A DNA stretch of 64,000 nt from an uncultured Candidatus Binatia bacterium (GTDB lineage Bacteria; Desulfobacterota; Binatia; Bin18): NCBI GenBank assembly GCA_965220195.1, contig CBDCPK010000005.1, positions 899,704-963,703 on the forward strand, given 5' to 3'. The translations under genes were made by a program, and so were the position numbers. Below are positions 876 through 58,741 of this stretch, in pieces. Position 1 is the first letter of the stretch, and the number at the start of each line of letters is the position of its first letter. The notes under the pieces were generated by a model. The model saw only the letters and a list, made by a program, of their open reading frames with translations. It did not search any database and was not told the DNA's origin.

Positions 876-3164
876 CTACGCCCCGCTCTTCTCCAGAATC
901 GCTTTTGCCACTCTGGCTGGAGACATGGGCAACTCGGTCATCCGCACCCCGGTTGCTCTGTAAATGGCATTGGCAATCGCAGCGGGTGGCGGGACGATCG
1001 GCACCTCACCGACGCCACGAATACCGATGGGATGGCCGGGATTGGCCACCTCGACCAGAATGGTTTCGATCATGGGCAGATCGAGACAGGTGGGCATGCG
1101 ATAATCCAGAAAGCCGGTATTCCGCATGGTCCCATCCTCAGCGTAAAAATACTCTTCGTTGAGCGCCCAGCCGACCCCTTGGGCCACGCCGCCCTGAATC
1201 TGCCCCTCGACATAGCTGGGATGGACGGCTTTGCCGACATCCTGGGCGGCAGTGTAGCGGAGAATATCGACTTTCCCGGTCTCGGGATCGACTTCCACAT
1301 CAACCACGTGCGCGGCAAAGGCGGGCCCTACCCCGCGTGGCCGGACAGACGCGCGACCCATAACCGGACCACCGGCACGGGGAAACTTGGGAGCGATTTC
1401 CTTCAAGCTCAGGGATTCGTGGCCATTAGTCAGACAGGAGAGCACCCCGTCCTGGTAGGTGACGTCTTCCGGCTTGACCTTCCAGACTGTGGCCGCCCGC
1501 TGCTTCAGTTGTCCGACGGCGTCTTGGGCCGCTTCATACACGGCCAGACCGGTAGCGAAGGTTACCCGACTGCCGCCGGTCGTATCGGTATGGCCAATGG
1601 ATTCCGTGTCTGCGACAACCGGGTGCATGTCTTCCGCCCTGAGTCCCAGGACCTCGGCCGCAATCATGGCGCACGAGGCCCGGCTGCCGCCGATATCGGG
1701 CGAGCCGGTCACCACATTGGCGCTGCCATCGGTGTTAATGCTCACCGTGGCGCTCGACTGAAACGCGGCATTAAACCAAAAGCCAGTGGCAACTCCCCGC
1801 CCGCGGAGTTTTCCGTTTTCACTCTGGGGCGGTGGCGACTGATAGTGCTCGCTGTTGTGAATGGCCTCAACCGTTTCGAGATAACCGATCCGTTTGAATT
1901 GAGGCCCGGCGGGTTGGGCCGTTCCTTCTTTGGCGCCATTGATCCGTCGTATTTCGAGCGGATCAAGCCCCAGCTTTTCCGCCATCTCGTCAAGAATCGT
2001 TTCAGCCGCCAGAGCGGGGTTGGTGGCACCGGGAGCGCGGTAAGCGCACGTCTTGGGCTTGTTTAGCACAACATCGTAGCCGTCGATCTGAAAATTTTCC
2101 AAGTCGTACGGAGCCAGAACGGTCATACAACCAGCCGCCACCGGTGAACCGGGAAAGGCGCCCGCTTCAAACGAGAGTTGGAGTTCGGCTGCCGTGATTT
2201 TACCCTCAAGGTTGACGCCGATCTTGGCGCGGATATGCGAGCCTGGCGTCGGGCCGGTTGCGCGCAGCACCTCGCTCCGAGACATGACCATTTTCACGGG
2301 TCGGCCGGTCAGTTTGGACAGGAGCAGGGCCACCGGTTCCAAATACACCGTGGTCTTGCCGCCAAAGCCACCCCCGATCTCAGCCGGCACGACTTTGATA
2401 TCCCCGCGGTTTATTTGCAGCATGGTGCCGCACAACTCGCGCACGGCAAATGGCCCCTGAGTGCTGACCCAGACCGTGGCCTTACCGTCCTGGTTATACT
2501 GCGCCACCGCGTTATGGGGCTCGATATAGCCCTGATGGACCATGGTGGTTGCAAACTCGCGGTCAATTACGATCTCGGCAGCGGCAAACCCGGCAGCGAG
2601 ATCGCCCCGCGAGAACTGTATATGGTTCGCAATATTGGTTTCTGTGTCATCCCCTGCATCGACTCCGGCGGTCCGCAGGTCCGGGTGGAGAATAACTGCG
2701 TCGTCCCGCATGGCTCCGAGCACGTTCTGGACAAAGGGCAGCGGTTCGTACTCCACTCTGATGAGCTTGAGCGCCTCCTCGGCAACATGTGGGCTGATCG
2801 CCGCAACGGCCGCGACCGCATGACCATCGTACAGGACTTTGCCGCGGGCCATAATGTTCGCAGCTAGGTGACGCGGGTTGACAAAGTTCTCGCCGATTTG
2901 CAGCATCCCCGGTTCAATCTCAGGAAAGTCGGTACCGGTAATGACCGCTTTGACGCCTGGCAGGGCTTGCGCCTCGGAAGTCTCGATGGATTTGATCCGC
3001 GCGTGGGGGTGTGGACTGCGCAGCACTTTCCCGTGCAGGAGACCCGGCAGGGTAATATCCGCTCCATAGCGGGCGCGTCCCGTGACTTTATCAACCCCGT
3101 CGTGCCGAATGGGACGGGTGCCAATCACCTTGAACTGATGCTCGTGTTGGGCTTCCATGTCCAC
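876..3164 (-). CDS. xanthine dehydrogenase family protein, molybdopterin-binding large subunit (CoxL-like paralog 1)
   Basis: 762 aa. N-terminus HQFKVIGTRPIRHDGVDKVTGRARYGADI is typical of aldehyde oxidase/xanthine dehydrogenase Mo-binding subunits. It has an AYRAPGATN loop rather than the form I CODH AYxCSFR motif. Confidence 0.9.
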   Translation of the reverse strand: MDMEAQHEHQFKVIGTRPIRHDGVDKVTGRARYGADITLPGLLHGKVLRSPHPHARIKSIETSEAQALPGVKAVITGTDFPEIEPGMLQIGENFVNPRHLAANIMARGKVLYDGHAVAAVAAISPHVAEEALKLIRVEYEPLPFVQNVLGAMRDDAVILHPDLRTAGVDAGDDTETNIANHIQFSRGDLAAGFAAAEIVIDREFATTMVHQGYIEPHNAVAQYNQDGKATVWVSTQGPFAVRELCGTMLQINRGDIKVVPAEIGGGFGGKTTVYLEPVALLLSKLTGRPVKMVMSRSEVLRATGPTPGSHIRAKIGVNLEGKITAAELQLSFEAGAFPGSPVAAGCMTVLAPYDLENFQIDGYDVVLNKPKTCAYRAPGATNPALAAETILDEMAEKLGLDPLEIRRINGAKEGTAQPAGPQFKRIGYLETVEAIHNSEHYQSPPPQSENGKLRGRGVATGFWFNAAFQSSATVSINTDGSANVVTGSPDIGGSRASCAMIAAEVLGLRAEDMHPVVADTESIGHTDTTGGSRVTFATGLAVYEAAQDAVGQLKQRAATVWKVKPEDVTYQDGVLSCLTNGHESLSLKEIAPKFPRAGGPVMGRASVRPRGVGPAFAAHVVDVEVDPETGKVDILRYTAAQDVGKAVHPSYVEGQIQGGVAQGVGWALNEEYFYAEDGTMRNTGFLDYRMPTCLDLPMIETILVEVANPGHPIGIRGVGEVPIVPPPAAIANAIYRATGVRMTELPMSPARVAKAILEKSGA

Positions 3165-3496: not shown

Positions 3497-3580
3497 TTTC
3501 TTGGGGATTGGGGAGCGGGTGTTGGGGATTAGGGAGTTGCGGTCTTCCTAACCCCCAGTCCCCAATCCCTGATCCCCCAT
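3497..3580. repeat. G-run / C-run imperfect palindrome in the MoaD-like to CoxL2 intergenic spacer
   Basis: TTGGGGATTGGGGAGCGGGTGTTGGGGATTAGGGAG...CTAACCCCCAGTCCCCAATCCCTGATCCCCC. The two halves are approximate reverse complements. Multiple GGGG/CCCC runs. Confidence 0.6.
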
Positions 3581-5850
3581 TATCCGTTTTTCTCCAGGAT
3601 CGCCTTGGTCACGCGGGGGGGTGACATTGGCAGGTCCAACATGCGCACGCCGGTTGCGTTATAGATCGCATTGGCGATGGCAGCCGGCGGCGGAACAATA
3701 GGCACTTCGCCCACACCGCGCACACCCACCGGATGACCGGGGTTCGGGACCTCAACCAGGACGGTTTCAATCATGGGTAAATCCAGACAGGTCGGCATCC
3801 GATAATCCAGGAAGCCGGTGTTCTGCATACACCCGTCTTCGCCGTAGACGTATTCCTCGTTGAGCGCCCAGCCGACCCCTTGGGCCACGCCGCCCTGCAT
3901 CTGGCCTTCCACGTAACTGGGATGGACGGCCTTTCCGACGTCTTGGACAGCCGTGTAGCGCAGTACGTCCACCTTGCCGGTTTCCTCGTCCACGGCCACG
4001 TCAACCACATGGGTGGCGAAGCCTGGCCCCACCCCGCGTGGGTTGACGGACGCGCGACCGGCGACCGGACCGCCGGTCCGGGGCAGCTTGCCGGCGAGTT
4101 CTTTGAGGCCCATGGATTCGTTGCCGTTCTCGGTACAGGTGAAGACACCATCCTGAAACACGACTTTATCCGCATCGACCTTCCAGGATTTGGCCGCCCG
4201 CTCCTTGAGTTGCTTCAGCACATCTTGCGCGGCTTCATACACGGCCGTCCCGGTAGCAAAGGTGACCCGGCTGCCGCCGGTCATATCCGTATGGCCAATG
4301 GACTCGGTATCGGCCACGACCGGATGGACTTCTTCTGCCTTGAGGCAGAGCACCTCCGCCGCAATCATGGCGCAGGACGCCCGCGTGCCACCAATATCGG
4401 TCGAACCGGTCACCACATTGGCGGTGCCGTCAGTGTTAATGGCGACGGTCGCGCTGGACTGAAAACCGGCGTTAAACCAGAAGCCCGAGGCCAGGCCCCG
4501 ACCAACCCGGCGGCCTTCAACCTGAGGCAGCTCGGACTTGAAGTGGTCGCTGTCCTTGGCGGCTTCGAGCGTTTCAAGAAAGCCGATCTGGCCAAACTTC
4601 GGACCCGCAGGCTGTGCCGTGCCCTCTTTGGCGCCGTTGATGCGACGGAACTCCAGGGGATCAATCCCCAACTTTTCCGCGAGTTCGTCAATCACCGTCT
4701 CTGATCCCATGGCCGCGTTGGTTGCGCCCGGAGCCCGGTAGGCCGCGGTCTTGGGCTTGTTGACCAACACGTCGTAGCCGTCGATTTGGAGATTCTCGAT
4801 GTCATACGGAGCAATAACGCACATACAGCCCGCGCCAACCGGAGAGCCCGGAAAGCCACCGGCTTCATAGGCCATCCAGACTTCGGCCGCCGTAATCTTG
4901 CCGTCCTTGTCCGCCCCCATCTTCACCTTGATGTGTGAACCAGGGGTCGGTCCGGTAGCTTTGAGCACATCGGCTCGGCTCATGACCATCTTGACCGGCT
5001 TGCCCGTATGCTTTGACAGCATGAGCGCAATCGGCTCGTAATAAATGGGAATCTTGCCCCCAAAGCCGCCGCCGATCTCTGCGGGAATGACCTTGATCTT
5101 GCTCGGCGGCATGTCGAGCACAAAAGCCGTTTGATCCCGGGCCGTAAACGCGCCTTGGGTACTCACCCATATCGTACTCTGCCCGTCCGAACTGTACTGC
5201 GCCACGGCGTTGTGCGGCTCAATATAGCCCTGGTGGACCATGGAGGTGTCAAATTCACGCTCAATGACCACTTCTGCGGCGGCAAAGCCCTCGGCCAAGT
5301 CTCCACGCGCGAACTGAAGGTGGTTGGCGACGTTCGTATCCGTGGGCTCTCCATCCTCGCCCTTGCCCAGGCCGGGGATCAGGATCGGGGCCTTATCATC
5401 CATGGCCTCAACAACGCTCTGCACGTGCGGCAAGACTTCATAGTCAACCTTGATCAGCTTTGCGGCTTCTTCGGCGATATGCGGGCTGGTGGCGGCGACT
5501 GCGGCCACCACATGGCCGTCGTACAGGACCTTGTCTCGGGCGATACAGTTTAGGGACATATGCTGCGGGTTGATCGGCAGTTCACCCATTGCCGCCATAC
5601 CGGGTCCGATCTCCGGAAAGTCCTGGGCGGTGAGGACCGCTTTCACCCCAGGCATGGCCGCGGCGGCTGAGGTGTCGATCGATTTGATTCTGGCGTGAGC
5701 GTGGGGGCTGCGCAGAACCTTGCCGTGCAAGAGGCCGGCCAAACTGATATCGGCACCATACTGGGCCCGACCGGTAACTTTATCGACCCCATCGTGCCGA
5801 ATCGGACGCGTCCCGATGACCTTGAATTTATGTTCTTGTTGGGCTGCCAT
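3580..5850 (-). CDS. xanthine dehydrogenase family protein, molybdopterin-binding large subunit (CoxL-like paralog 2)
   Basis: 756 aa, clearly paralogous to 876..3164 (HKFKVIGTRPIRHDGVDKVTGRAQYGADI...). The start overlaps and is coupled to the upstream small-subunit gene. Confidence 0.9.
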   Translation of the reverse strand: MAAQQEHKFKVIGTRPIRHDGVDKVTGRAQYGADISLAGLLHGKVLRSPHAHARIKSIDTSAAAAMPGVKAVLTAQDFPEIGPGMAAMGELPINPQHMSLNCIARDKVLYDGHVVAAVAATSPHIAEEAAKLIKVDYEVLPHVQSVVEAMDDKAPILIPGLGKGEDGEPTDTNVANHLQFARGDLAEGFAAAEVVIEREFDTSMVHQGYIEPHNAVAQYSSDGQSTIWVSTQGAFTARDQTAFVLDMPPSKIKVIPAEIGGGFGGKIPIYYEPIALMLSKHTGKPVKMVMSRADVLKATGPTPGSHIKVKMGADKDGKITAAEVWMAYEAGGFPGSPVGAGCMCVIAPYDIENLQIDGYDVLVNKPKTAAYRAPGATNAAMGSETVIDELAEKLGIDPLEFRRINGAKEGTAQPAGPKFGQIGFLETLEAAKDSDHFKSELPQVEGRRVGRGLASGFWFNAGFQSSATVAINTDGTANVVTGSTDIGGTRASCAMIAAEVLCLKAEEVHPVVADTESIGHTDMTGGSRVTFATGTAVYEAAQDVLKQLKERAAKSWKVDADKVVFQDGVFTCTENGNESMGLKELAGKLPRTGGPVAGRASVNPRGVGPGFATHVVDVAVDEETGKVDVLRYTAVQDVGKAVHPSYVEGQMQGGVAQGVGWALNEEYVYGEDGCMQNTGFLDYRMPTCLDLPMIETVLVEVPNPGHPVGVRGVGEVPIVPPPAAIANAIYNATGVRMLDLPMSPPRVTKAILEKNG

Positions 5851-5852
5851 GT

Positions 5853-6329
5853 TTACCTCCCTTGCATTTCAGCGGCGGCGTCTTGCACCGCTCTCACGAT
5901 CTTGTCATAGCCCGTGCAGCGGCAGAGATTGCCAGCCAGGGCATAGCGAATTTCATGCTCAGTCGGGTTGGGGTTCCGGTCCAACAGCGCTTTGGACGTG
6001 ACTAAAAATCCGGGGGTGCAGATGCCGCACTGGAGGGCCGCATGTTCCAGGAATTTCTTCTGGAGCGGATGCAGGGTATCTCCGTCGGCCAGGCCTTCGA
6101 CCGTGGTGATATCTTTGCCCTCGGCTTCAACACCGAGCACCAGACAGGAGTCGGTGGGGCGTCCATCCAGAATGACGCTGCACGCACCGCAGTCGCCCGT
6201 CAGACAGCCTTCTTTCGTGCCGGTATAGCCCACGACATCCCGCAGCACTTCAAGCAGGCTCTGACGTGGTTCACACAGGAACTCGGTCTCTTCCCCATTA
6301 ACTGTTGTTTGTACGTGTACTTTCTTCAT
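5853..6329 (-). CDS. (2Fe-2S)-binding small subunit of molybdenum hydroxylase (CoxS-like)
   Basis: 158 aa with a plant-type ferredoxin cysteine pattern (CLTGDCGACSV) and a second cluster motif (QCGICTPG...CRCTGY). Confidence 0.9.
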   Translation of the reverse strand: MKKVHVQTTVNGEETEFLCEPRQSLLEVLRDVVGYTGTKEGCLTGDCGACSVILDGRPTDSCLVLGVEAEGKDITTVEGLADGDTLHPLQKKFLEHAALQCGICTPGFLVTSKALLDRNPNPTEHEIRYALAGNLCRCTGYDKIVRAVQDAAAEMQGR

Positions 6330-7222: not shown

Positions 7223-7315
7223 GGTCGCCTCCTTTTCCGATTTTGATTCGTCTTCCTGCCTTTCTACAGGCTCCTAGATTGCTATAGAAAAGCGCCAGGA
7301 AGTGCAAGGGTTCCA

Positions 7316-7366
7316 AAGAGTAAACGTGTCAACAGCTTTGTATCTAGGGGGACACGTTTACTCTTT
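7316..7366. repeat. 51-bp palindromic MITE/REP-like element, copy 1 (variant arms)
   Basis: AAAGAGTAAACGTGTCaacagctttgtatctaggGGGACACGTTTACTCTTT, between coxM and mocA. Confidence 0.8.
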
Positions 7367-10240: not shown

Positions 10241-10247
10241 CGGCTTA

Positions 10248-10299
10248 CAGCGTAAACGTGCCAACAGCTTTATACCAGAGGAGGACACGTTTACCTTTT
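10248..10299. repeat. palindromic MITE/REP-like element, copy 2 (degenerate)
   Basis: cagcGTAAACGTGcCaacagctttataccagaggaGGACACGTTTACcttt, between the LLM and lplA-like genes. Shares the caacagcttt spacer with copy 1. Confidence 0.7.
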
Positions 10300-10381: not shown

Positions 10382-11452
10382 ATGCAGGTTCGTTTGCTCA
10401 CCCAATCCGATACGACCCCGCTCCAGAGCGTGGCAACGGACCAGTATTTTCTTCACACCGTCGTTGAGACACAGCTCCCAATCTTGCGCGTCTATACATA
10501 CCCGGAGGATGTGCTGCTGCTCGGTCGGTATCACGCTGCCGGCGCACTCGGCCCAGACCCAGGTCTGACAATCGCTCGGCGTCTGAGTGGCGGACGAGCC
10601 TTTCCGAGCGGTAACGGGTTTGTCCAGTTCTCGCTCATTGTCCCGCACCGTTCGTTCTTCTTCTCCGCCGACCCGCACCACATCGCGCCGTTTCAGATCC
10701 TCAATCGTTATGTTCGCGGGGTGCTGCGCGGCCTCAAAACCGGTGGGGTTGAAGTCTTCTATCCAGGACAAGATTTTCTAACGGTCCAGCGGCTGCCGGT
10801 TGGCTGGCACTCTTTTGTGACAGCAGACAGCGGAGCCGTGCTGTATGAAGGCGGCGTGTTTGTCCAACGGGATATGAGCCTCCTGCCCCGTTTTCTTGAC
10901 CGGGCCGACCCGCAGGGGACTCTTCCCTGTCAGATCTTTATGCCGGACCAGGTTTACAATTTGGATAAAGTCCTCGGGCGGTCTCTTGTGCCGGACCAAG
11001 TTGTTCATCTGCTCCGGAACGGCTTTACCCAGCAGTTCGGGCTGGAATGCCTCGACCGCGACCTGGACAAAAACGAGCGGGCATCCATTCTGGGAAAACA
11101 GGCTCAGTCCGACCTCGTGCCGAACAGCCGCCCGCTGCGATCCGACCTCCCCTATGCAGCAACGAGGCAAACTCCACTTGGAGAACTTCGAGTCCGCTTC
11201 TCTCTCACTCCCGAACGGACAATCGAGGCGATCCAGTTCTCGGGTGATTTTCTTGCCAACCCGGCAGGGATACAGGCGTTGGAGCACAATCTCGAAGGCT
11301 GTCCGCTGGAGAAAGCCTCACTTTGGCAGGTCATTGACCAGACGTTTCTTGAGCCGGAGCACTATCTGATTGGGGCCGGGAAGTTAGCCGACTTGCCCGG
11401 AGTGATGATAAGCGCCTCGAAGAGTAAACGTGTCCAGCATCTCTATACATAG
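10382..11452 (+). CDS. lipoate-protein ligase A-like protein (BPL/LPL catalytic domain)
   Basis: 356 aa, LplA-like N-terminus (PILRVYTYPEDVLLLGRY). The C-terminal residues ...SKSKRVQHLYT and the stop lie inside a 51-bp palindromic repeat copy. Confidence 0.6.
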   Translation: MQVRLLTQSDTTPLQSVATDQYFLHTVVETQLPILRVYTYPEDVLLLGRYHAAGALGPDPGLTIARRLSGGRAFPSGNGFVQFSLIVPHRSFFFSADPHHIAPFQILNRYVRGVLRGLKTGGVEVFYPGQDFLTVQRLPVGWHSFVTADSGAVLYEGGVFVQRDMSLLPRFLDRADPQGTLPCQIFMPDQVYNLDKVLGRSLVPDQVVHLLRNGFTQQFGLECLDRDLDKNERASILGKQAQSDLVPNSRPLRSDLPYAATRQTPLGELRVRFSLTPERTIEAIQFSGDFLANPAGIQALEHNLEGCPLEKASLWQVIDQTFLEPEHYLIGAGKLADLPGVMISASKSKRVQHLYT

Positions 11453-11474
11453 CTGGAGGACACGTTTACTCTTT
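11421..11474. repeat. palindromic MITE/REP-like element, copy 3
   Basis: AGAGTAAACGTGTCCAGCATctctatacatagcTGGAGGACACGTTTACTCTTTT, overlapping the lplA-like 3' end. Confidence 0.8.
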
Positions 11475-11501
11475 TCCCCAGTCCCGCCAATCGAGTAGGC
11501 T

Positions 11502-12386
11502 ATGGAGGACACTCAGAACAAGGCGCTCCAGCACGGTCAGATTGCAGCCGGGCTCCTCGCCGACAATGACCTCACGCGGCTTTCAGCGTTGGCTCTGCTT
11601 GAGTCGGAGAGAACACTAACGTCTCTCTCGGACGACGTGGTCCGTAACCTTCTCACGTGTCTGGGGCATCGTACCAAAAAAATACAACGTGGTGCGGCGA
11701 CCGCCCTCGTCCGCTTCGCCTCCCAACAGCCTGACATTATCGCGGCGCTGACACACAAGCTGACGCATCCGGACGCGCGGCTGCGCTGGACTGCGGCTTT
11801 TACCCTCTCCCAGCTTGAGCTGCCGAGCCCCTCGCCTCAAAGAGTAAACGTGTCCTCCAATCAGACACAACTGCTGGACACGTTTACTCTTCTTCCTGTT
11901 TTAATCGAAAACCTGGGACACCAGGAAAGCGACCTGCGCTGGGCCGCGGCAACTGCGGTCTTGCAGCTCGCCCGGCACTATTCTCAAGACGTTGTTCAGG
12001 CCATGATCCAACTCGTGTATAAGGGCAATGCCGTACAACGCCGTATGGCCCTCTACTGTCTCCGCGACCTGAAGCAAATGGATCACACAGCCCAGGACGC
12101 CTATCTCGCCAGCCTGCGTGACGAGGACCCTATGGTCCGCCTGGGCGGTTTGTCCTGTCTAGGTAAGCTCCGACTGAGGAGTGGAGCAATGCGAGCAGCG
12201 ATTCCCCGGCTTTTAGAACACGACCCGGACATGGGTGTCCGCCGTGCGGCTGCCGTAACCTGCGGGCAGATCGGCGACATGGACACACATATCATTGAGG
12301 CGTTGCAGCGAACAGCTCAAGCGGCTGACACCAGCCTCAGCAAAGCATCGGCCGGAGCACTCAAGAAACTGCTATACCGGACGTAA
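11502..12386 (+). CDS. HEAT repeat (PBS-lyase-like) protein with in-frame repeat-element insertion
   Basis: 294 aa with repeated DxRLRWTAAFTL / DLRWAAATAV / DPMVRLGGLSCL / DMGVRRAAAVTCG HEAT-like units. Residues QRVNVSSNQTQLLDTFTLL are encoded by a 51-bp repeat copy at 11841-11892. Confidence 0.7.
   Translation: MEDTQNKALQHGQIAAGLLADNDLTRLSALALLESERTLTSLSDDVVRNLLTCLGHRTKKIQRGAATALVRFASQQPDIIAALTHKLTHPDARLRWTAAFTLSQLELPSPSPQRVNVSSNQTQLLDTFTLLPVLIENLGHQESDLRWAAATAVLQLARHYSQDVVQAMIQLVYKGNAVQRRMALYCLRDLKQMDHTAQDAYLASLRDEDPMVRLGGLSCLGKLRLRSGAMRAAIPRLLEHDPDMGVRRAAAVTCGQIGDMDTHIIEALQRTAQAADTSLSKASAGALKKLLYRT
11841..11892. repeat. palindromic MITE/REP-like element, copy 4 (inverse orientation, inside HEAT-repeat CDS, in-frame)
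   Basis: AAGAGTAAACGTGTCCTCCAATcagacacaactGCTGGACACGTTTACTCTT. Confidence 0.8.
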
Positions 12387-12404
12387 AATGCGGGTGATGA
12401 AGTT

Positions 12405-12641
12405 TTACGACAGGTAACCCATCGGCTCGTTTTTCAGCAGTTCAACAATTACCTGCTGCCGGGTCTTGGGCCGTGTTTGGTTTTGTCCCTTCCCATCCAA
12501 GACAAACAGACCGCGCTTATACGTTCCACCGCCGTGCTGACACGTGTCCCACAACCGCTGCCACCGCTCGGGCGAGCGGACCCACTGTCTGAGAATTTTC
12601 TCTTGGTTGGTCATCCTTCCGTCTTGACTGAATTCTGACAT
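12405..12641 (-). CDS. hypothetical small protein
   Basis: 78-aa ORF in the gap between the HEAT gene and the MMPL array. No recognisable motif. Confidence 0.3.
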   Translation of the reverse strand: MSEFSQDGRMTNQEKILRQWVRSPERWQRLWDTCQHGGGTYKRGLFVLDGKGQNQTRPKTRQQVIVELLKNEPMGYLS

Positions 12642-12749: not shown

Positions 12750-15275
12750 TTACGCGGTCTGCCCCTCCACACTCGGCTGTGGCATTTCGACCAAAGCCGT
12801 TTTTCCCCCGTATACGAAGCGGGGTTTGAACGTATTCAGGATCGCCGGCAGGACGGTCATCGAAACCAAGAGACAGGCGCCCATATTCAGCGACAGCATG
12901 GCGCCCAGATAAAAATTGGGCCGAAAATTCGAGGTGAGGAAGACCAAGAAGCTCGCCGTCACAACGAGTGCATTAAAAAAGATCGCTTTGCCCGACGTCG
13001 CCATGGTGGCGGCGGTAATCTTTTCCGGGTCAGTCAATCCAGAGCGGACTTTAATCCGGTATTTATTCAGGAAATGGATCGTATAGTCGATGCCAATGCC
13101 AATCACCATGGAAGCGGTCAACGATTTACCAACCTCAAGGGGAATGCCAAGCAGCCCGAGCAGTCCAAAACTGAAGACCATGACTAAACTAATCGGGATA
13201 ATATTAATCAGCCCAGCGACCCAGGAGCGAAACATAAACGCCGTCAACAAAAAGACGGCCACGAGTGAGACGACGAGACTGGCCAACTGCCCAGACACCA
13301 CCAGTTCGCTGAAACGGGTGGTCAGATAGCCATTGCCGGCAATCCCAAGCCGAAAACCGCTGTTGGTTTCCCAACCAATAACCGTCGGCTCAATACCAGC
13401 CAGCCAGCGTCCAAAGCGGATAGACCACGGATCCTGTGAGCCAGTATCGGCTGTACCGCTATCCCCTGCCTGCCCAAACTCACGCACGGCAAAGTCTTGC
13501 ACAATCCCAACCACGCGTTCGATGTCCTGGGTGCTATCCGACCGCAAAAATACGGTCATGTTGGCGTGCTGATAGTCATAATCCACAATTTCATCAAAAT
13601 CGTCCGGGTCGCCAGAGAAGGAGTAGAGCAACAGGTACTGGGCGATGAGGTCTTGCGAGTCCGGAATCACTTCCATTTCGGGCTGATCCTCGTTCATGAC
13701 CCGGTTCATGCGTTTGATATACTCGGCTAACGATAGCGACCCGCCAACGATAGGGTCTTGTTCGACGACGGTCTGGAGGCGGTCGAGTTTGGCGAGCAGC
13801 ACCGGATCTTTGAGCCGATCAGGCTGATGTCCTTCAAGCGCAATATACAGCGGGAGATTGCCTTGGAATGTCTCGCCTAGGACGGTATCCGCAATCCGCA
13901 CGGGGCTGTTCGGATCGGACATCTTGATAAATGAGGTATCGACAAAAATGCGCTGCGCACCAAGCAGACACACCAGCATGACACTGGCTGTCACGCCCCC
14001 CACCACGAGTGGTTTTCGCGCAACGCCGACGCCTAAGCGGGAGAGCGTCCGTGCCGCCCAGCCCGTCGCCGCGAGGTCACCACTGCGGCCCATTTGGGCT
14101 CGCAAGCCTCGGCTGACTTTGACCGGCAGGAGGCTCAACAGGGCCGGAAAAAAGGTGATGGAGAAGACCATCGCGGCCAGAACGCCAATAGAGGTGAAGA
14201 TGCCAAAATAGCGGATCGGGAGAATGCTGGCGGTCAGGAAGGATAAAAACCCGGCCGCCGTCGTCAAGGAGGTGAAGACCACCGGCTGCCACATCTCTTG
14301 CATCGCGGCGAGTACCGCGCCGACTGAGGAAACGTCCGGATGTTGCAAGACCTCATCGTAATAACGGCTCAGAATGTGAATACCGTTTGCCACCCCAACC
14401 GCCATCAGGATAACCGGCATCATGGTGGAAATGGAATACATCGGAACACCCACGGCCGCCATAATGCCTAAGGTCCAAATCACGGAGACTCCGACTACCG
14501 CCAAGGGGAGCAAGACGCCGCGCACACTCCGATAGGTAAAATACAGCGTGCCGAGGACAATCACGAGAATGAGCGGGATGAAGGTCTCCATGTCCTGCCG
14601 CATCCCCTCCTCAAAGGTGACCTCCAGAGCGCCTTGGCCCGCAATATGGAATTCCTCTGGAGCACCGGCCGCTTTTTTCGCCTCAACCATATCCCGGATC
14701 GTCGTATAAATAGCCATCCGTCTGGCCGTGCCTTCGAGAGTCCCTCCGCCAGGTTCCATTTTGGCCGTGATGAGCATCCCGGTGCCGTCCTGGGAGACGA
14801 TCCAATTGACGAACATCGAATTGTGAAAGAGGGCCTGCCGTAATGCGTCGAGTGACTCGGATGAGTGAGGCACCGTTTCCATGAACGGATCAACGGCCAT
14901 GCCGTCCACCGTCCCGGTGATATTATCGAGCGTGGCCACACTCGCCACGTCTTCATCGCGGACGGCTTTGATGCCAGGCAACAGGGCGATCTTTTCCGAG
15001 AATTCTTTGATCGTTGCGAGCGTACGCGGATTGAAGACGCCGTTTTCGCCCGGATTTTTATTCAGCACTCCGACAACAATTAGGTCGCGTATGCCAAAGC
15101 GCTCCTCGACTAGGTCGTTATAGCTCATGACCGGATCGTTTTGGGGAATAAAGGCGTCGGCATCGCCCTCAAAGCGCAACGACTGCAGCTGGACCCAGGC
15201 CAGGCCGGTACAGCCCAGCACAAGGCCAATGACCAGGAAACGAAAGCGGATGATCCAGCGGAAAAATGATTCCAT
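12750..15275 (-). CDS. MMPL/RND superfamily transporter (paralog 1 of 3)
   Basis: 841 aa with an N-terminal TM helix (MESFFRWIIRFRFLVIGLVLG), a large periplasmic domain, and two hydrophobic multi-helix blocks (by eye) typical of RND/MMPL permeases. Confidence 0.85.
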   Translation of the reverse strand: MESFFRWIIRFRFLVIGLVLGCTGLAWVQLQSLRFEGDADAFIPQNDPVMSYNDLVEERFGIRDLIVVGVLNKNPGENGVFNPRTLATIKEFSEKIALLPGIKAVRDEDVASVATLDNITGTVDGMAVDPFMETVPHSSESLDALRQALFHNSMFVNWIVSQDGTGMLITAKMEPGGGTLEGTARRMAIYTTIRDMVEAKKAAGAPEEFHIAGQGALEVTFEEGMRQDMETFIPLILVIVLGTLYFTYRSVRGVLLPLAVVGVSVIWTLGIMAAVGVPMYSISTMMPVILMAVGVANGIHILSRYYDEVLQHPDVSSVGAVLAAMQEMWQPVVFTSLTTAAGFLSFLTASILPIRYFGIFTSIGVLAAMVFSITFFPALLSLLPVKVSRGLRAQMGRSGDLAATGWAARTLSRLGVGVARKPLVVGGVTASVMLVCLLGAQRIFVDTSFIKMSDPNSPVRIADTVLGETFQGNLPLYIALEGHQPDRLKDPVLLAKLDRLQTVVEQDPIVGGSLSLAEYIKRMNRVMNEDQPEMEVIPDSQDLIAQYLLLYSFSGDPDDFDEIVDYDYQHANMTVFLRSDSTQDIERVVGIVQDFAVREFGQAGDSGTADTGSQDPWSIRFGRWLAGIEPTVIGWETNSGFRLGIAGNGYLTTRFSELVVSGQLASLVVSLVAVFLLTAFMFRSWVAGLINIIPISLVMVFSFGLLGLLGIPLEVGKSLTASMVIGIGIDYTIHFLNKYRIKVRSGLTDPEKITAATMATSGKAIFFNALVVTASFLVFLTSNFRPNFYLGAMLSLNMGACLLVSMTVLPAILNTFKPRFVYGGKTALVEMPQPSVEGQTA

Positions 15276-15400
15276 GCTGACGATAGCTCCTTATATTTCT
15301 GACACTGCTGAGTAGCTGTGAGCAAGTAGAAACGAGAAAGTGAGTTCACCGGTATTAGGCGAATCGACAATTAACACAGGACTAGGGAGTAGGCTATTAC

Positions 15401-15720
15401 GCAGGCCAAGGCGCTGCTCACTGGCCGCTGCGCCCGCTCCGTCATTGCCGACAAAGCCGATGATAGTCAGGAACTCCTGGCCTTCATTAAAAACCAAGGG
15501 GCTACGCCAGTCATTCCTCCCCGGGCAGGGCGCCTAGCGCCCCGGTCCTATGACACGACTCTCTATAAGCACCGCAACTGGATTGAGCGCACCTTCAATC
15601 GGCTCAAACACTGCCGCCGCCTTGCCACCCGCTATGACCGCAAGACCGCCCCCTGCCTCGCCTTCTTACACCTCGCGGCCTTCGCCCTCTGGCAGTATTA
15701 CATGTCGATTCAGCCTAGGC
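15401..15720 (+). pseudogene. IS5-family DDE transposase, C-terminal fragment (no start codon)
   Basis: Frame translation ...ADKADDSQELLAFIKNQGATPVIPPRAGRLAPRSYDTTLYKHRNWIERTFNRLKHCRRLATRYDRKTAPCLAFLHLAAFALWQYY matches the conserved C-terminus of IS5/IS427-group transposases (NxIERxFxxLKxxRRIATRYDK). Only about 105 aa remain, with no upstream start. Confidence 0.5.
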
Positions 15721-18231
15721 CTCAGATTCTTGAACTACCACGAGTGGCGCTTCTTTATCGCCATACACAAAACGGGGTTTAAACCGATTCAAGATCGCCG
15801 GCAGGACCGTCATCGAGACAATCAAGCAGGCTCCCATACTGAGAGACAGCATGACACCCAGGTAAAAGAGGGACTCGAAGTTCGAGGTGAGAAAAATCAG
15901 GAAGCCGCCGATAACCACGACCGCATTAAAAAAGATGGCCTTGCCGGAGGTGGCCATCGTGGCCGCTGTAATCTGCGTGGGGTCTATTTGACCGTCTTGG
16001 AGCCCCTCTCGGACTTTGACCCGATACTTACTCAGAAAGTGAATCGTATAATCGATGCCAATACCGATGGTCATCGAGGCAGTCAGCGATTTCCCAATCT
16101 CTAGCGGGATATTCAGCAGCCCCAGCAGCCCAAAGCTAAAAATCATCACCAGGCTAATCGGCAGGACATTAATCAGCCCGGCAACGAACGAGCGAAACAT
16201 GACCGTGGTAAGCAGAAAGACCGCGCCGAGCGAGGTCACCAAGCTCGCCAGTTGCCCGGACACAATCAGTTCGCTCAGGCGGTTCAGGAGGTAGCCATTG
16301 CCCGCAATCCCGATCCGAAAGCCGCTGTTTGTCTCCCACCCCGCCACCGTGGGCTCAATGCCGGCCAACCAGCGGCCCAAGCGGAGTCCCAGCGGATCAT
16401 GGGTGGCAGCGTCGGTGGCTCCACTCTGGCCAAATTCCTCGACCGCAAAGTCGCGGATAAGCTGCACGACACGTTCGACGTCTCGGGTCCTATCGGAGCG
16501 CAGATAGACCGCTACGTTGGCATGCTGGTAGTCATAATCCACGACATCGTCGAAATCATCCGGATCACCCGAAAACGAATACAGCAGCAGATACTGGGCA
16601 ACCAGGTCACGAGAAGTTGGGATGACTTCCATTTCTGCACGATCTTCATTCATGACCCGGTTCATCCGTTTGATGTATTCCGCTAATGACAAGGAGCCAC
16701 CCACATCAGGATCCTGCTCCACCCGCGTTTGCAGGCGGTCCAGTTGATCGAGCAGGACCGGATCTTTGAGCCGATCAGGCTCATGCCCTTCGATTGCCAC
16801 ATAGATAGGCACGGTGCCTTGAAATGTATCGCGCAGGACCATATCGCTAACGCGTAGCTCGTGGGATGGGTGAAACATTCCGACCATGGTCGAGTTCACG
16901 ACAATCCGCTGCGTGCCGAGTACGCACAGCACAACAACGAGCGCGGCCGGCACCCATACGACCAGTGGACGACGTGCCACACCGCGACCGAGGCGCGCCA
17001 AGAAGCTGGCTGCCCAGCCGGCGGCTGCCAGGTCTCCACTCCGGCTCATTTGATTGCGCAGACCCCGGCTGACGGTCGGCGACAACAAACTCAACATGGC
17101 CGGGAAAAAGGTCAGCGAGAAGAGCATCGCGACCAAGATTCCCACTCCACTAAACACCCCAAAATAGCGGATAGGGACAACGGTCGCAGTCAGAAAAGAT
17201 AAGAACCCGGCTGCGGTGGTCAGCGAGGTCAAAATGACGGGCTGCCACATCTCTCGCATAGTCACAATCACCGCGTCAGCTGAGGAAATATCCGGATGCT
17301 CTAATAGCTCTTCGTAGTAGCGACTCAGAATATGAATGCCATCCGCCACGCCGATGGCCATGAGAACGACCGGCATTATGGAGGTGACAAAGTACATTGG
17401 AATACCGAGCGCGGCCATAATCCCGAGGGTCCAGATCACCGACACGACAACGACGGCCAGCGGCAGGAGGACGCCGCGCAGGCTTCGATACGTACAATAT
17501 AAGGTTCCCAGAAGCACGACCAAGGTCAGGGGTAAGAAGGTTTCCATGTCGCGGGCTTCCTCTTCCGACAAAGTGACTTCGACCGCTCCACGCCCGGCAA
17601 TATGAAATTCTTCCGGCACGCCCGTCGCCTTTTTAGCCTCGACCATGTCTCGGATCGAGGTATACACAGTCATCCGTCGCGCCGTGCCTGCCTGTGTGTC
17701 TTCGGTTGGCTCCATCTTGGCCATGATGAGCAGTCCCGTCCCGTCTTGCGAGACGACCCAATTGACGAACATGTGATTGGCGAAGATGGCCTGTTTAAGA
17801 TCTGCCAGCGCATTGGCTGCGTCGGGAACGGCTTCCATAAACGGATCAACGTTTATACCGTCGACGGCGCCAGTGATATTATCCATCGTGGCGATACTGG
17901 CCACATCTTCGTCCCGGATGGCTTTGATTCCGGGTTGCAGAGCAAGGCGTTCCGAGAACTCTTTGACAATGCCTAAGGTCCGTGGATTAAAGACACCATT
18001 CTCGTCGGCGTTGTCGTTCAGTACCCCAATCATAATGAGATCACGGATGCCGAATCGTTCTTCAACCACTCTGCTATAGGCGAGGATCGGATCATCGAAG
18101 GGGAACATGGCTTCAACATCGTTATCAAAGCGTAATGTTTGAATTGGAAGGGCGATGAGCACAGTGCTACCGAGGACTAGGCCAATGACCAGCCAGCGGA
18201 AACGAATGACGGCCCGAAAGAATGATTCCAT
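15715..18231 (-). CDS. MMPL/RND superfamily transporter (paralog 2 of 3)
   Basis: 838 aa, highly similar to 12750..15275 and 18250..20772 along its full length. Confidence 0.85.
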   Translation of the reverse strand: MESFFRAVIRFRWLVIGLVLGSTVLIALPIQTLRFDNDVEAMFPFDDPILAYSRVVEERFGIRDLIMIGVLNDNADENGVFNPRTLGIVKEFSERLALQPGIKAIRDEDVASIATMDNITGAVDGINVDPFMEAVPDAANALADLKQAIFANHMFVNWVVSQDGTGLLIMAKMEPTEDTQAGTARRMTVYTSIRDMVEAKKATGVPEEFHIAGRGAVEVTLSEEEARDMETFLPLTLVVLLGTLYCTYRSLRGVLLPLAVVVVSVIWTLGIMAALGIPMYFVTSIMPVVLMAIGVADGIHILSRYYEELLEHPDISSADAVIVTMREMWQPVILTSLTTAAGFLSFLTATVVPIRYFGVFSGVGILVAMLFSLTFFPAMLSLLSPTVSRGLRNQMSRSGDLAAAGWAASFLARLGRGVARRPLVVWVPAALVVVLCVLGTQRIVVNSTMVGMFHPSHELRVSDMVLRDTFQGTVPIYVAIEGHEPDRLKDPVLLDQLDRLQTRVEQDPDVGGSLSLAEYIKRMNRVMNEDRAEMEVIPTSRDLVAQYLLLYSFSGDPDDFDDVVDYDYQHANVAVYLRSDRTRDVERVVQLIRDFAVEEFGQSGATDAATHDPLGLRLGRWLAGIEPTVAGWETNSGFRIGIAGNGYLLNRLSELIVSGQLASLVTSLGAVFLLTTVMFRSFVAGLINVLPISLVMIFSFGLLGLLNIPLEIGKSLTASMTIGIGIDYTIHFLSKYRVKVREGLQDGQIDPTQITAATMATSGKAIFFNAVVVIGGFLIFLTSNFESLFYLGVMLSLSMGACLIVSMTVLPAILNRFKPRFVYGDKEAPLVVVQESEA

Positions 18232-18249
18232 AAGGGGCTACTCCCTAGT

Positions 18250-20772
18250 CTATGACCAGGCCGCTGCTTCTTGCTGCGGCGCAGTGCTCATGCCAGCCGC
18301 TTTTCCTTCGCCATACACAAACCGTGGCCGAAACCGATTCAAGATCGCCGGCAGGACCGTCATCGACACAACCAGACAGGCGGCCATATTGAGCGACAGC
18401 ATCGCGCCCAAGTAAAAGTTTACCCGGAAGTTGGAGGAGAGCAGGACCAGGAAGCCGGCGATGACCACCACGGCATTAAAAAAGATCGCCTTGCCTGAGG
18501 TCGCCAGCGTGGCCGCCGTAATCTGGGCCGGGTCGGTCAGCCCCTCCTGGACTTTGAACCGGTACTTACTCAGAAAGTGAATAGTATAGTCGATGCCAAT
18601 GCCAATGACCATACCCGCGGTGAGCGATTTCCCAAGCTCCAACGGGATTCCTAACAGCCCGAGTAGGCCAAAACTAAAGATCATCACCAGGCTGATGGGA
18701 ATGATATTAATCAGGCCGGCGACCCAGGAGCGAAACATGAGCGTGGTGAGCAGAAAGACCGCGCCCAGCGAAGTCACCAAAGTCGAGACCTGTCCGGACA
18801 CTACCAATTCGCTCAAGTGTTTGAACTTGTAGCCATTGCCCGCAATCCCGATCCGAAAGCCACTGTTCGTCTCCCAGCCGGTCACCGTAGGCTCAATGCC
18901 GGTCAGCCAGCGACCCAAGCGGAGGCCAAACGGGTCATCTGCTGCCGTGCTGGAGTCTCGGTTATAGCCAAACTCACGGATGGCGAAGTCGCGGATAATG
19001 TTGACAACCCGCGTCACATCCCGGGTGCGATCGGTGCGCAGAAACACTACTACGTTGGCATGTTGGTAGTCGTAGTCCACGACTTCGTCGAAATCATCCG
19101 GATCCCCGGAGAACGAGTACAGCAACAGATACTGGGCGACGAGATCCTTGGAGGTCGGGATGACTTCCATCTCGGGGCGATCCTCGTTCATAATCCGGTT
19201 CATCCGCTTGATATATTCCGCGAGCGACAAGGAGCCGCCCACGACAGGGTCTTGCTCAACCGTCGCTTGCAGGCGGTCCAGTTGATCGAGCAGGACCGGA
19301 TCTTTGAGCCGATTCTGCTCATGCCCCTCGATCGCCACATAGATGGGGACGGTCCCCTGAAATTTTTCACGCAAGATCGTATCGCTCATGCGCAGCGCGT
19401 TGTCCGGGGCCAGGATACCAATCCACGTCGAGTCGACAAAAATTCGTTGCGCCCCGAACAGGCACAGACCCATCACGATTGCGGTCGGCACCCAGACTGT
19501 GAGTGGGCGGCGTGCCACGCCACGGCCTACGCGCGCCAATAGCGTGGCGGCCCAGCCGGTGGCGGCCATGTCGCCACGCTGCTCTCTCTGCCGACGCAGC
19601 CCTCGGCTGACGGTGGGTGACAACAGGCTCAGCATGGCGGGGAAAAAGGTGAGCGAGAAGACCATCGCGACCAAGACGCCCACGGCGGTAAACACCCCGA
19701 ATTGCCAAATCGGGACAATGGCACACGTCAGAAAGGAGAGGAACCCGGCGGCGGTGGTCAGCGAGGTTAAAATGACAGGTTGCCACATCTCCCGCATGGT
19801 CGCCAGCACGGCGTCAGGCGAGGATGTGTCAGGCTGTTCCAACAGTTCATCGTAATACCGGCTCAGAATATGAATGCCATCCGCCACGCCGATGGCCATG
19901 AGGACGACCGGCATCATGGAGGTGATGAAGAACATCGGGGTACCGAGCACTGCCATAATGCCGAGTGTCCAGATGACCGACACGACAACGACGGCCAGTG
20001 GGAGAAGGACGCCACGGATGCTGCGGTAGGTACAATACAAAGTCACCACAATCACGATCAGGACCAGGGGCAGGAAGGTTGCGGTGTCGCGCGCGCCCTC
20101 TTCCTCGAAGGTGACCTCAATCGCGCCACGCCCGGCAAGCTGGAATGCTTCCGGCACCCCCGTCGCTTTTTTGGCCTCGAGCATGTCGTGGATGGCAGTG
20201 TACACCGCCATCCGCCGCAGCGAGCCCTCCTGCGTGCCGTCTGCCTGTTCCATCTTGGCTATAATGAGCAGTCCGGTCCCGTCCTGGGATACGACCCAAT
20301 TGACGAACATGTGGTTGGCGAATAGGGCCTGTTTGAGGTCGGCCAGGGCTTCCTCGGCCTCGGGTACGGTTGCCATAAACGGATCGACGTTCATGCCATC
20401 GACCGTACCGATGATGTTATCCATGGTGGCGACACTAGCCACATCTTCGTCACGAATGGCTTTGATGCCCGGCAGAAGGGCGATCTGTTCCGAGAATTCT
20501 TTGACAATGCCGAGTGTCCGCGGGTTAAAGACGCCATTTTCGTCGGCGTTGTCGTTTGTCACGCCGACCATAATGAGATCACGGATGCCAAACCGTTCTT
20601 CAACCACCTCGTTATAGTTGATGATCGGATCATCGTCCGGGAAAACGGCGTCCACGTCGCCTTCCAGGCGTAAGGTTTGAATCGGGAGAGCGATGAGCAC
20701 GGTACTCCCGAGGACCAGCGTGATGACCAGCCAGCGGAAACGGATAATGTTCCGAAAGAACGATTCCATCAT
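18250..20772 (-). CDS. MMPL/RND superfamily transporter (paralog 3 of 3)
   Basis: 840 aa. Its N-terminus MMESFFRNIIRFRWLVITLVLG matches the other two paralogs. Confidence 0.85.
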   Translation of the reverse strand: MMESFFRNIIRFRWLVITLVLGSTVLIALPIQTLRLEGDVDAVFPDDDPIINYNEVVEERFGIRDLIMVGVTNDNADENGVFNPRTLGIVKEFSEQIALLPGIKAIRDEDVASVATMDNIIGTVDGMNVDPFMATVPEAEEALADLKQALFANHMFVNWVVSQDGTGLLIIAKMEQADGTQEGSLRRMAVYTAIHDMLEAKKATGVPEAFQLAGRGAIEVTFEEEGARDTATFLPLVLIVIVVTLYCTYRSIRGVLLPLAVVVVSVIWTLGIMAVLGTPMFFITSMMPVVLMAIGVADGIHILSRYYDELLEQPDTSSPDAVLATMREMWQPVILTSLTTAAGFLSFLTCAIVPIWQFGVFTAVGVLVAMVFSLTFFPAMLSLLSPTVSRGLRRQREQRGDMAATGWAATLLARVGRGVARRPLTVWVPTAIVMGLCLFGAQRIFVDSTWIGILAPDNALRMSDTILREKFQGTVPIYVAIEGHEQNRLKDPVLLDQLDRLQATVEQDPVVGGSLSLAEYIKRMNRIMNEDRPEMEVIPTSKDLVAQYLLLYSFSGDPDDFDEVVDYDYQHANVVVFLRTDRTRDVTRVVNIIRDFAIREFGYNRDSSTAADDPFGLRLGRWLTGIEPTVTGWETNSGFRIGIAGNGYKFKHLSELVVSGQVSTLVTSLGAVFLLTTLMFRSWVAGLINIIPISLVMIFSFGLLGLLGIPLELGKSLTAGMVIGIGIDYTIHFLSKYRFKVQEGLTDPAQITAATLATSGKAIFFNAVVVIAGFLVLLSSNFRVNFYLGAMLSLNMAACLVVSMTVLPAILNRFRPRFVYGEGKAAGMSTAPQQEAAAWS

Positions 20773-25774: not shown

Positions 25775-26569
25775 TCACATTAAGGAGAGCGTGACCGCCG
25801 CAGCTTCCGGGCTGAGCAGGGAAGGGGTCTTTTCCGGCAGCAGCATGAAGTCGTCATAGGCCGCTTCGGATATACTGGTCATTGTGTCAGAGTCTGAGAG
25901 CACGGCGATACCGCGTACCTTTTCCGGCTCAAAACCAAACAGGTCCTTATAGTCCTGGTAGAAATTCACGCTTTCCTGTCGCCACTCACCGGGCTCGGCC
26001 GGTCCGCGCTGTAAGACGACGACCTTGGCGCGCCAATAGACCGGGCTGTCGAAACGCGTGCCAACCGCGAGCGTCGAACTCCAGACGTATTTAATCGCCC
26101 GCGGCAGCAGGCGGCTCCCAAAAATTACGTAGACGGCCGCGGCCGAATCATTCGTTTTTTTCGCTCGTTCGTTGGCGCCGAGAGGGAGTTTGGTTGCGCG
26201 CCAGCGCCAGCGCAAAATGGGGTAGTCCTGAGGCTCACATATATGTTCTATGCCGATCTGGACATCCTGGTTGTTGGCATAGGCGTGCAGAAACCGATTG
26301 CCTTCTTCCTCGGCAATGCGGTAGACGGCCTGCGCGGTCGCTTCGCTGCCACGCACCTTCCAGCCCGACGGGAAGACACCGGCCGGGTATTGCTGAAAAG
26401 TCTCCTGAAAGGGCGTCGAGCCCTGGAGTGTCTGCGCCTGCCCATCGTCAGGGTCTACCGCTCTGGAAAGAGTAAACGTGTCCAGCATCTCACGGCTATT
26501 GGAGGATACGTTTACTCTTTGGGCCAAAACGCAGACGATCAGGAATGCCGTGAACCACACAACACGCAC
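25775..26569 (-). CDS. secreted hypothetical protein carrying an in-frame repeat-element insertion after the signal peptide
   Basis: Probable GTG start with a GGAGG RBS, giving VRVVWFTAFLIVCVLAQ (signal-peptide-like). Then RVNVSSNSREMLDTFTLS, encoded by the repeat at 26467-26520, then the mature domain (...AYANNQDVQIGIEH...). The ORF-track N-terminal extension to 26881 is unlikely. Confidence 0.45.
   Translation of the reverse strand: MRVVWFTAFLIVCVLAQRVNVSSNSREMLDTFTLSRAVDPDDGQAQTLQGSTPFQETFQQYPAGVFPSGWKVRGSEATAQAVYRIAEEEGNRFLHAYANNQDVQIGIEHICEPQDYPILRWRWRATKLPLGANERAKKTNDSAAAVYVIFGSRLLPRAIKYVWSSTLAVGTRFDSPVYWRAKVVVLQRGPAEPGEWRQESVNFYQDYKDLFGFEPEKVRGIAVLSDSDTMTSISEAAYDDFMLLPEKTPSLLSPEAAAVTLSLM
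26467..26520. repeat. palindromic MITE/REP-like element, copy 5 (inside secreted-protein CDS, in-frame)
   Basis: AAAGAGTAAACGTGTCCAGCATctcacggctATTGGAGGAtACGTTTACTCTTT. Confidence 0.8.
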
Positions 26570-32257: not shown

Positions 32258-32311
32258 AAAGAGTAAACGTGTTCAGCATCCCATGTCTATGGGAGAACAC
32301 GTTTACTCTTT
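32258..32311. repeat. palindromic MITE/REP-like element, copy 6
   Basis: AAAGAGTAAACGTGTtCAGCATcccatgtctATgGGAGaACACGTTTACTCTTT, overlapping the aminotransferase 3' end and upstream of the HAD gene. Confidence 0.8.
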
Positions 32312-33534: not shown

Positions 33535-33628
33535 ACGCCCTCCCAAAGCGCCATTACTGTCAGATTCACCCGCTGCCCAGCATCGATGGGTCCGGCATGT
33601 TTGTCAACAAAAACCGTGCACTCCTCGA

Positions 33629-34963: not shown

Positions 34964-35126
34964 AGCGTTCTCCGTTCTGTCGGATCGTCATAAGCGCTGA
35001 CTTACCCTGGGTCAAGGAGACCGGCTTACGATGGGCTGACCAGCCCAAACCGCATTCCCTCTTGTCCCCGTGTATGGAAGGGTCTATGAAGGTCAAAGAA
35101 AGATAGAGACGACGAGCGGACGTATC

Positions 35127-36278: not shown

Positions 36279-36322
36279 ACGTGTCCTCCAATGAGCGTGG
36301 ATAATGCTGGACACGTTCGCTC
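36270..36322. repeat. palindromic MITE/REP-like element, copy 7 (inverse orientation; right arm degenerate)
   Basis: GAGAGTAAACGTGTCCTCCAATgagcgtggataATGCTGGACACGTTcgCTCc. Supplies the VWA gene stop codon. Confidence 0.7.
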
Positions 36323-36354
36323 CTTGTAGCACGGCAGCCGCCTGCCCGGCCCTG

Positions 36355-51974: not shown

Positions 51975-52028
51975 AAAGAGAGAACGTGTCCAGCATCACA
52001 TGTGTATTGGAGGACACGTTTCCTCTTT
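51975..52028. repeat. palindromic MITE/REP-like element, copy 8
   Basis: AAAGAGAgAACGTGTCCAGCATcacatgtgtATTGGAGGACACGTTTcCTCTTT, 30 bp after the cysteine desulfurase stop. Confidence 0.8.
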
Positions 52029-54291: not shown

Positions 54292-54322
54292 CTCCCAAGA
54301 GGGGATGGGGATATCGGGTAAA

Positions 54323-55491: not shown

Positions 55492-55514
55492 CACCCCTCC
55501 CAAGAGGGGATGAG
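55492..55514. repeat. C/G-rich hairpin repeat (REP2 family: CACCCCTCCCAAGAGGGGATG...)
   Basis: Between convergent DUF3368 and TauD genes. The same motif occurs at 58711-58734 (thiG-thiE spacer) and, split by the IS, at 52978-52993 plus 54292-54310. Confidence 0.6.
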
Positions 55515-55534
55515 AAGGGTGGGCAAAGATAATA

Positions 55535-58710: not shown

Positions 58711-58734
58711 CACCCCTCCCAGGAGGGGATGGGG
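58711..58734. repeat. C/G-rich hairpin repeat (REP2 family copy)
   Basis: CACCCCTCCCAGGAGGGGATGGGG, preceded by CCCACCCCAGCCTTCGGC as in the 55470-55514 copy. Confidence 0.6.
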
Positions 58735-58741
58735 TGATTGG

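Follow-up and report, generated by a model that had tools for sequence, protein, structure and literature searches.

The gene for a HEAT-repeat protein in an uncultured Candidatus Binatia bacterium was found to carry, in frame, a 54-nt copy of a dispersed palindromic repeat. The account that we consider very probable is one old in-frame insertion into a functional gene, followed by vertical inheritance and later seamless removals. The gene (11502–12386, + strand; 294 aa) lies in the window, the 64,000-nt stretch of DNA analyzed here.

The insert and its host gene

The host gene was assigned from the ORF list and by Pfam, AlphaFold, and Foldseek analyses. Its ORF matched the Pfam models HEAT_2 (1e-18), HEAT (3e-17), and HEAT_EZ. 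The AlphaFold model (49 sequences) was an all-helical solenoid with a mean pLDDT of 89.7 and a pTM of 0.84. The tandem helix-turn-helix repeats, the alpha-solenoid, and the Pfam HEAT models over threshold identify the product as a HEAT-repeat protein. Foldseek comparison with PDB retrieved designed HEAT-like proteins (alphaRep), armadillo repeat proteins, and importin-alpha, that is, only generic HEAT/armadillo solenoids that provided no functional clue.

A protein search returned orthologues of two lengths, 294 and 276 aa. In the protein alignment, the long orthologues carried the peptide QRVNVSSNQTQLLDTFTL, and the short ones read ...LPSPSP|LPVLIENLG.... A scan using one genome per species yielded 41 loci (numbered with the prefix L), almost all of them labelled Candidatus Binatia. 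Comparison of filled and empty orthologous sites placed the insertion at 11838–11891 (+), corresponding to codons 113–130. The filled site is ...TCGCCT[ CAAAGAGTAAACGTGTCC TCCAATCAGACACAACTGCT GGACACGTTTACTCTT ]CTTCCT..., i.e., ...TCGCCT[CAAAGAG...ACTCTT]CTTCCT..., and empty alleles read ...TCGCCT|CTTCCT...; the difference is exactly 54 nt, or 18 codons. Owing to a shared C, the boundary is ambiguous by 1 nt, and target-site duplication is absent. An earlier note on this DNA had described an in-frame insertion of 51 bp and 17 codons; the open frame was verified, and the size is to be replaced by the values above.

The palindrome that the same note had placed at 11841–11892 was also borne out. 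The insert contains a left arm, AAAGAGTAAACGTGTCC (11839–11855, +), a 20-nt loop, TCCAATCAGACACAACTGCT (11856–11875, +), and a right arm, GGACACGTTTACTCTT (11876–11891, +). The 16 nt of the left arm from 11840, AAGAGTAAACGTGTCC (11840–11855), are the exact reverse complement of 11876–11891 and pair perfectly with the right arm across the 20-nt spacer. RNA folding of the insert segment gave −25.6 kcal/mol with z = −6.4. The orientation of the loop was identical in all insert-bearing HEAT orthologues; as read from the sequence, a flipped loop would place a TGA in frame. Scans of 11300–12500 for promoters and terminators were negative except for a weak terminator-like match on the minus strand, located inside the element. 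The predicted tryptic peptide of the insert-bearing protein is VNVSSNQTQLLDTFTLLPVLIENLGHQESDLR.

In the AlphaFold model, the insert forms the connection between helix 92–103 and helix 127–138. The pLDDT falls below 50 at residues 111–125 and is confident on both sides of this loop, and the final four residues of the insert, TFTL, start the next helix. The structural model thus supports the reading of the insert as a tolerated loop, modelled at low confidence, between two HEAT units. The suggestion of a tolerated extra loop in the earlier note is supported by the orthologues, by this mapping, and by the intact ORFs described below.

Other copies of the repeat family

The arm motif occurred 15 times in the window with three or fewer mismatches, where shuffled sequence would give 0.30. 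The 15 matches pair into eight hairpin copies, among them the HEAT insert, whose hairpin is listed at 11839–11892, and a metagenome scan added 35 further copies. The family consensus consists of the arm AAAGAGTAAACGTGTCC, followed by AGCATCTCATRTCTATTGGA and then GGACACGTTTACTCTTT. Its members have 17-nt inverted arms, a modal loop of 20 nt, a length of 52–57 bp (modal 54 nt), and the termini AAAGAG...CTCTTT. Across the family, the arms covary at positions 5, 7, and 8. Two of the three reading frames of the arms are open, and the third meets TAA. The open frames read (Q/K)R(V/G)NVS...DT(F/S)(T/P)L (frame A) and KSKRV...GHVYS (frame B).

No family for the repeat was found when the whole window was searched against Rfam at gathering thresholds, which returned tRNA only. 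A crude regular-expression search of the window and 65 loci (about 0.7 Mb) identified no ORF with the transposase signature HUH...Y(x3)[NQ][PA], which is a weak negative. Our literature search found nothing specific on Binatia repeats. Integron attC sites were considered and rejected by inspection, as the arm does not fit RYYYAAC / GTTRRRY.

Six of the copies in the window, all listed without strand, lie outside the HEAT gene and its upstream neighbour. The 52-nt copy at 7315–7366 is intergenic and flanked by GGGTTCC| and |CAGACG; its presence is patchy among species, and the empty site, GGGTTCC|CRRAYRTTCT, shows neither duplication nor microhomology. The copy at 10247–10299 has degenerate arms and lies between luciferase-like and LplA-like genes. 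The copy at 26467–26520 occupies the 5′ part of a DUF3047 ORF, upstream of the domain. Two copies supply stop codons: that at 32258–32311 holds the stop (32287–32289) of an aminotransferase ORF (32287–33546, −), and that at 36270–36325 contributes GAG TAA, of which the TAA is the stop (36276–36278) of a VWA-domain ORF (35070–36278, +). The copy at 51975–52028 lies downstream of an aminotransferase gene (50759–51946). At the orthologous intergenic sites 7315–7366 and 10247–10299, the loop between the arms was inverted among species (window compared with L003, L006, L007, L008, L013, L019, L043, and L045). The copy at the 7315 site in L007–L009 has a 6-nt loop and forms a 40-nt hairpin.

A sister copy of the HEAT insert was identified in the LplA-like gene located just upstream (10382–11452, +; ORF list and Pfam). 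Filled and empty sites define it as a 58-nt insertion at the 3′ end of the coding sequence (11416–11473, +; hairpin listed at 11419–11474). It provides the last 11 codons and the stop of the gene. The site is empty in L003 to L008, L010, L013, L019, L043, and L045, and in species without the sister copy the LplA-like stop precedes the start codon of the HEAT gene by 3 nt. The C-terminus is SLVLPTK* in L003 and SPVLPTQ* in L045, versus the element-encoded SKSKRVQHLYT* in the window. An identical truncated half-element, ending ...SKSKRVQHQ* (at about 5960–6000), is common to L002, L012, L016, and L017, which points to recombination between lineages.

The LplA-like gene of the window also has an empty site, GGCGCA|CTCGGC, at 10546–10547 (+), as judged from the filled vs. 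empty comparison. At this site, within the catalytic domain, an in-frame 54-nt copy is present in L007 and L008 (5051–5104 in both), L013 (5030–5083), L043 (5033–5086), and L044 (2917–2970), and its peptide reads QSGNVSTSRVR(F/L)ED(T/R)FPL. More in-frame copies were found on metagenome contigs: L051 (641–694 and 2931–2984), L049 (2421–2474), L060 (382–435), and L054 (3712–3766). The hosts of these copies are a UvrD/AddA-like helicase, an AddB-like PD-(D/E)XK protein, a TonB-receptor ORF, a cytochrome c, and an unassigned ORF. Besides the HEAT gene, the hosts thus comprise at least four domain-bearing genes (LplA-like, UvrD/AddA-like, AddB-like, and cytochrome c) and two long open frames. In total, at least seven in-frame copies lie within long ORFs; six of seven have the 20-nt loop (54 nt), a length that the detection method favours. 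This family has colonized coding sequence in frame repeatedly.

The window holds other repeated sequences as well. A 51-nt unit, AAACCGAAGGTCCCCCCCTTCTTTCAGGGGGAAGCCCGAAGGGCAGGGGGC, is present in two tandem copies with 88% identity at 62767–62868. A different 31-nt dispersed motif, CTCCCAAGAGGGGATGGGG..., occurs three times (54292–54322, 55497–55527, and 58716–58746) and may represent another small repeat family. At the gene level, three tandem paralogous MMPL/RND-type transporter genes (12750–20772, −; 838–841 aa) share 66–81% DNA identity with one another (D1–D6). Two adjacent long ORFs on the same strand (876–3164 and 3580–5850; 762 and 756 aa) have stretches of 74–77% identity (D7 and D8). 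The orthologue of the latter ORFs in L043 and L045 contains molybdopterin-dehydrogenase large-subunit domains (Ald_Xan_dh_C and MoCoBD).

Presence, absence, and loss across the Binatia clade

In the clade L001–L019, the HEAT insert was present in 16 of 19 species-level genomes. The 18 residues were missing from L006, L013, and L018 and from all 15 scorable outgroup loci (among L020–L036), which answers the orthologue comparison proposed in the earlier note. At least one repeat copy of any kind was detected in 18 of the 19 ingroup loci (none in L018) and in none of the 22 outgroup loci. Among the loci scanned, the family is restricted to L001–L019 and L042–L045.

Variants of the insert followed the relationships of the host genes. 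The TTT (Phe) variant was confined to a shallow clade (the window, L001–L004, and L019), with TCT (Ser) elsewhere, and the variant ACACCA was common to the sister taxa L011 and L015. The insert of L009 has diverged by 8–11 of 54 nt, about as fast as the rest of its gene. Since the variants track the gene tree and the L009 copy decays like its gene, a single ancient insertion that was vertically inherited is indicated.

In the gene tree, empty alleles were nested among filled ones, and every empty allele had one identical, ancestral junction, ...CCT|CTTCC.... The empty L042 shares 97.7% identity with the HEAT gene of the window, as compared with 97.9% for the filled L001. The empty L043 and L044 are sister to the filled L004, from which they show no differences in alignment columns 318–481 around the site and two in columns 318–649. 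Further empty lineages are L045/L006 and L013. An assembly artefact was rejected as the source of the empty alleles, since they were recovered in five independent assemblies and typical k-mers are longer than the arms. That the losses are seamless and that direct repeats are absent would favour enzyme-mediated excision over replication slippage.

The alignment also indicates recombination among these lineages. The HEAT gene of L004 is a mosaic relative to that of L043, being near-identical in columns 318–649 and carrying 35 differences in columns 650–925, and the HEAT gene of L002 differs from that of the window mainly within the first 90 nt, at a divergent 5′ end. In these sequences, recombination is demonstrable, and some empty alleles may stem from allele replacement rather than excision.

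Instead, the patchy distribution could stem from horizontal spread in recent times or from site-specific insertion that occurred repeatedly, which would also account for the low divergence of the insert. We regard this as unlikely. The insert is 94–100% identical among species whose HEAT genes are 73–98% identical, and recombination between lineages is evident. In addition, three target sites look alike (GCYT|YTCC), and similar loops occur in other copies, e.g., that at L060:382. Against this explanation, the flanks of the 35 further copies showed neither target specificity nor duplication; at four polymorphic sites, likewise, target-site duplication or microhomology did not exceed 1–2 nt. The mismatched TCT arm variant, found in some 10 deep lineages, is distributed in accordance with the gene tree, and the divergence of the L009 copy is gene-like. 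Furthermore, synonymous differences in the flanks start 6 nt from the junction and track the phylogeny, which argues against a co-transferred tract.

We therefore return to the single old insertion, for which the following course of events is proposed. A small non-autonomous palindromic repeat would have inserted once between codons 112 and 113, without target duplication, in the ancestor of one Binatia clade. It may have survived owing to its length of 3n and to its landing in one of the two stop-free frames of the element. The 18 extra residues would be translated and would lie between HEAT units, as a disordered surface loop together with the opening turn of the next helix. The gene would have kept its function while the insert was passed on vertically, and the insert would have been removed seamlessly in several lineages later. 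The removal was most likely carried out by the family's own hairpin-recognizing transposition of the single-strand type, as in IS200/IS605 and REPIN/RAYT.

Frozen sites in coding copies and relation to known elements

Synonymous and nonsynonymous divergence was compared among the 16 insert-bearing sequences (15 species loci and the window). Outside the insert, pS was 0.355 and pN 0.121, and the resulting pN/pS of 0.34 indicates purifying selection on the HEAT gene. Within the insert, pS was 0.035 and pN 0.066 (pN/pS about 1.9). Third-position diversity was 0.021 in the insert, as against a median of 0.276 and a minimum of 0.150 in 238 other windows of the gene, none of which was as low. Loop and arms were each frozen when scored apart. 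A similar pattern was observed for the in-frame copy of the LplA-like gene, where third-position diversity was 0.037 vs. 0.269 and the flanks diverge. The intergenic orthologous copy 1.5 kb away decays normally, differing at 5–14 of 54 nt where the HEAT copy differs at 0–3. Frozen third positions are not predicted by a neutral translated loop.

These observations favour a reading in which the intragenic hairpin is kept for a nucleic-acid function, as an mRNA structure modulating expression or as a segment that would be bypassed or removed by processing, with the peptide incidental or unmade. We nevertheless judge it improbable. No compensatory pair changes were found in the 16 orthologous HEAT copies, each change breaking a pair, and an A-C mismatch sits in mid-stem in most deep lineages; the frozen pattern does not resemble selection that favours base pairing. 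The 54-nt length of six of the seven in-frame copies suggests read-through, although the detection method favours this length. The insert also contains no stop codon and no matching pair of take-off and landing codons as in T4 gene 60, which speaks against bypass, and the Rfam search gave no match for it. Possible causes of the freezing are selection at the nucleic-acid level or some form of homogenization. As the cause, ectopic gene conversion by copies elsewhere in the genome was rejected, since the loop, which is specific to this copy, is no less frozen than the arms. It is rather doubtful that the copies in coding sequences are held by nucleic-acid selection and not for their peptide, whether as a signal in mRNA or DNA that is bound, bypassed, or processed, or in the form of a reversible cassette excisable by an enzyme. 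If true, such selection would account for frozen synonymous sites in two independent genes alongside the decay of the intergenic neighbour.

The earlier note had also raised the possibility of a still-intact pseudogene in the making, with the protein inactivated by the insertion. A foreign 18-residue segment between repeat units is what could suggest this, but the idea is very improbable: an intact ORF was retained in each of the 16 insert-bearing sequences analyzed and in 27 insert-bearing protein clusters, the pN/pS of the gene is that of a constrained protein, the core around the insertion site, LPVLIENLGHQESDLRWAAATA, is almost invariant, and the flanks of the loop are confident in the model. 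These data support the conclusion that the HEAT gene is still functional and not decaying. That the 18 residues are ancestral, with the family born from the HEAT gene, or that the likeness is coincidental, is scarcely credible: the same note had named such residues in orthologues from genomes free of the repeat as grounds for this view, yet the 15 scorable outgroup loci lack both the residues and the family, and empty alleles exist for unrelated sites, intergenic and genic, that the element also occupies.

The insert was then compared with known systems. Rickettsia palindromic elements (RPEs) were reportedly described by Ogata et al. in 2000. RPEs are about 100–150 bp long and occur in Rickettsia. 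Both RPEs and the Binatia element are dispersed palindromic repeats found in frame within unrelated protein-coding genes. In each case, the peptide gained is family-specific and sits where the fold can accommodate it, and the host genes are functional and have orthologues in relatives that are without the segment. In-frame insertion of the Rickettsia elements is documented (PMC10969869). The Binatia element differs in its length of 52–57 bp (modal 54), with a single 17-bp stem and a 20-nt loop, and its length, its host, and the lack of an Rfam match set it apart from the RPE sequence family. Repeated seamless loss and frozen synonymous sites, documented for the Binatia element, go beyond the RPE pattern. 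By this comparison, the insert is functionally an instance of the Rickettsia palindromic element phenomenon in another phylum and with a much smaller element.

REPINs consist of two inverted REP units, each a palindrome, and REPs are extragenic by definition. RAYTs are IS200/IS605-like Y1 transposases that mobilize REPs and REPINs. The Binatia element resembles REP/REPIN sequences as a short and abundant hairpin, with about one copy per 4–8 kb and mostly at gene ends. It further shares with them the lack of target duplication, vertical inheritance within a clade, excision, and covarying arms. Excision of REPINs has been observed in sequencing reads (PMC3116915), and a REP is a 20–40-nt imperfect palindrome, one end of which bears a conserved tetranucleotide, GTAG or CGTC (PMC3733652). 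The Binatia element has no such GTAG or CGTC end, and its 17-nt arm is not self-complementary, so that it forms a single stem-loop. In addition, the crude motif search found no RAYT in the window and 65 loci, and at least seven copies lie in frame inside long ORFs.

Terminal inverted repeats (here 16–17 nt), non-autonomy, and short length are also features of MITEs such as Correia/NEMIS, ERIC, BOX, and Nezha, for which occasional in-frame fusions with host ORFs have been described (PMC10969869). The Binatia element differs from these in the absence of target-site duplication in four filled vs. empty comparisons, in being smaller than typical MITEs, and in having no known parent insertion sequence. 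In mechanism, the element resembles REP/REPIN sequences although it fails their sequence definitions, and for want of target duplication it is not a classical MITE.

In bypass inserts, the take-off codon matches the landing codon and is followed by a stop, and the insert need be neither 3n in length nor open. Like those of T4 gene 60 and the byps of Magnusiomyces mitochondria, the Binatia insert is a short, mobile, hairpin-forming insert in coding sequence with conserved nucleotides. It differs in being open and 3n, with CCT before and CTT CCT after it and neither a stop nor a take-off/landing pair.

Selfish hairpins that colonize coding sequences are best known from Rickettsia. Here, an element of only 54 nt does the same in an uncultured phylum of free-living bacteria, Binatia (Binatota). 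For annotation, it matters that repeat copies provide several of the gene ends and stop codons of this genome. The frozen synonymous sites in two host genes suggest a constraint on the nucleic acid which, if true, would change how such inserts are read. Insertion has led to protein-length polymorphism between close relatives, apparently reversible without a scar, and the filled and empty alleles constitute a natural series for the study of how such elements excise.
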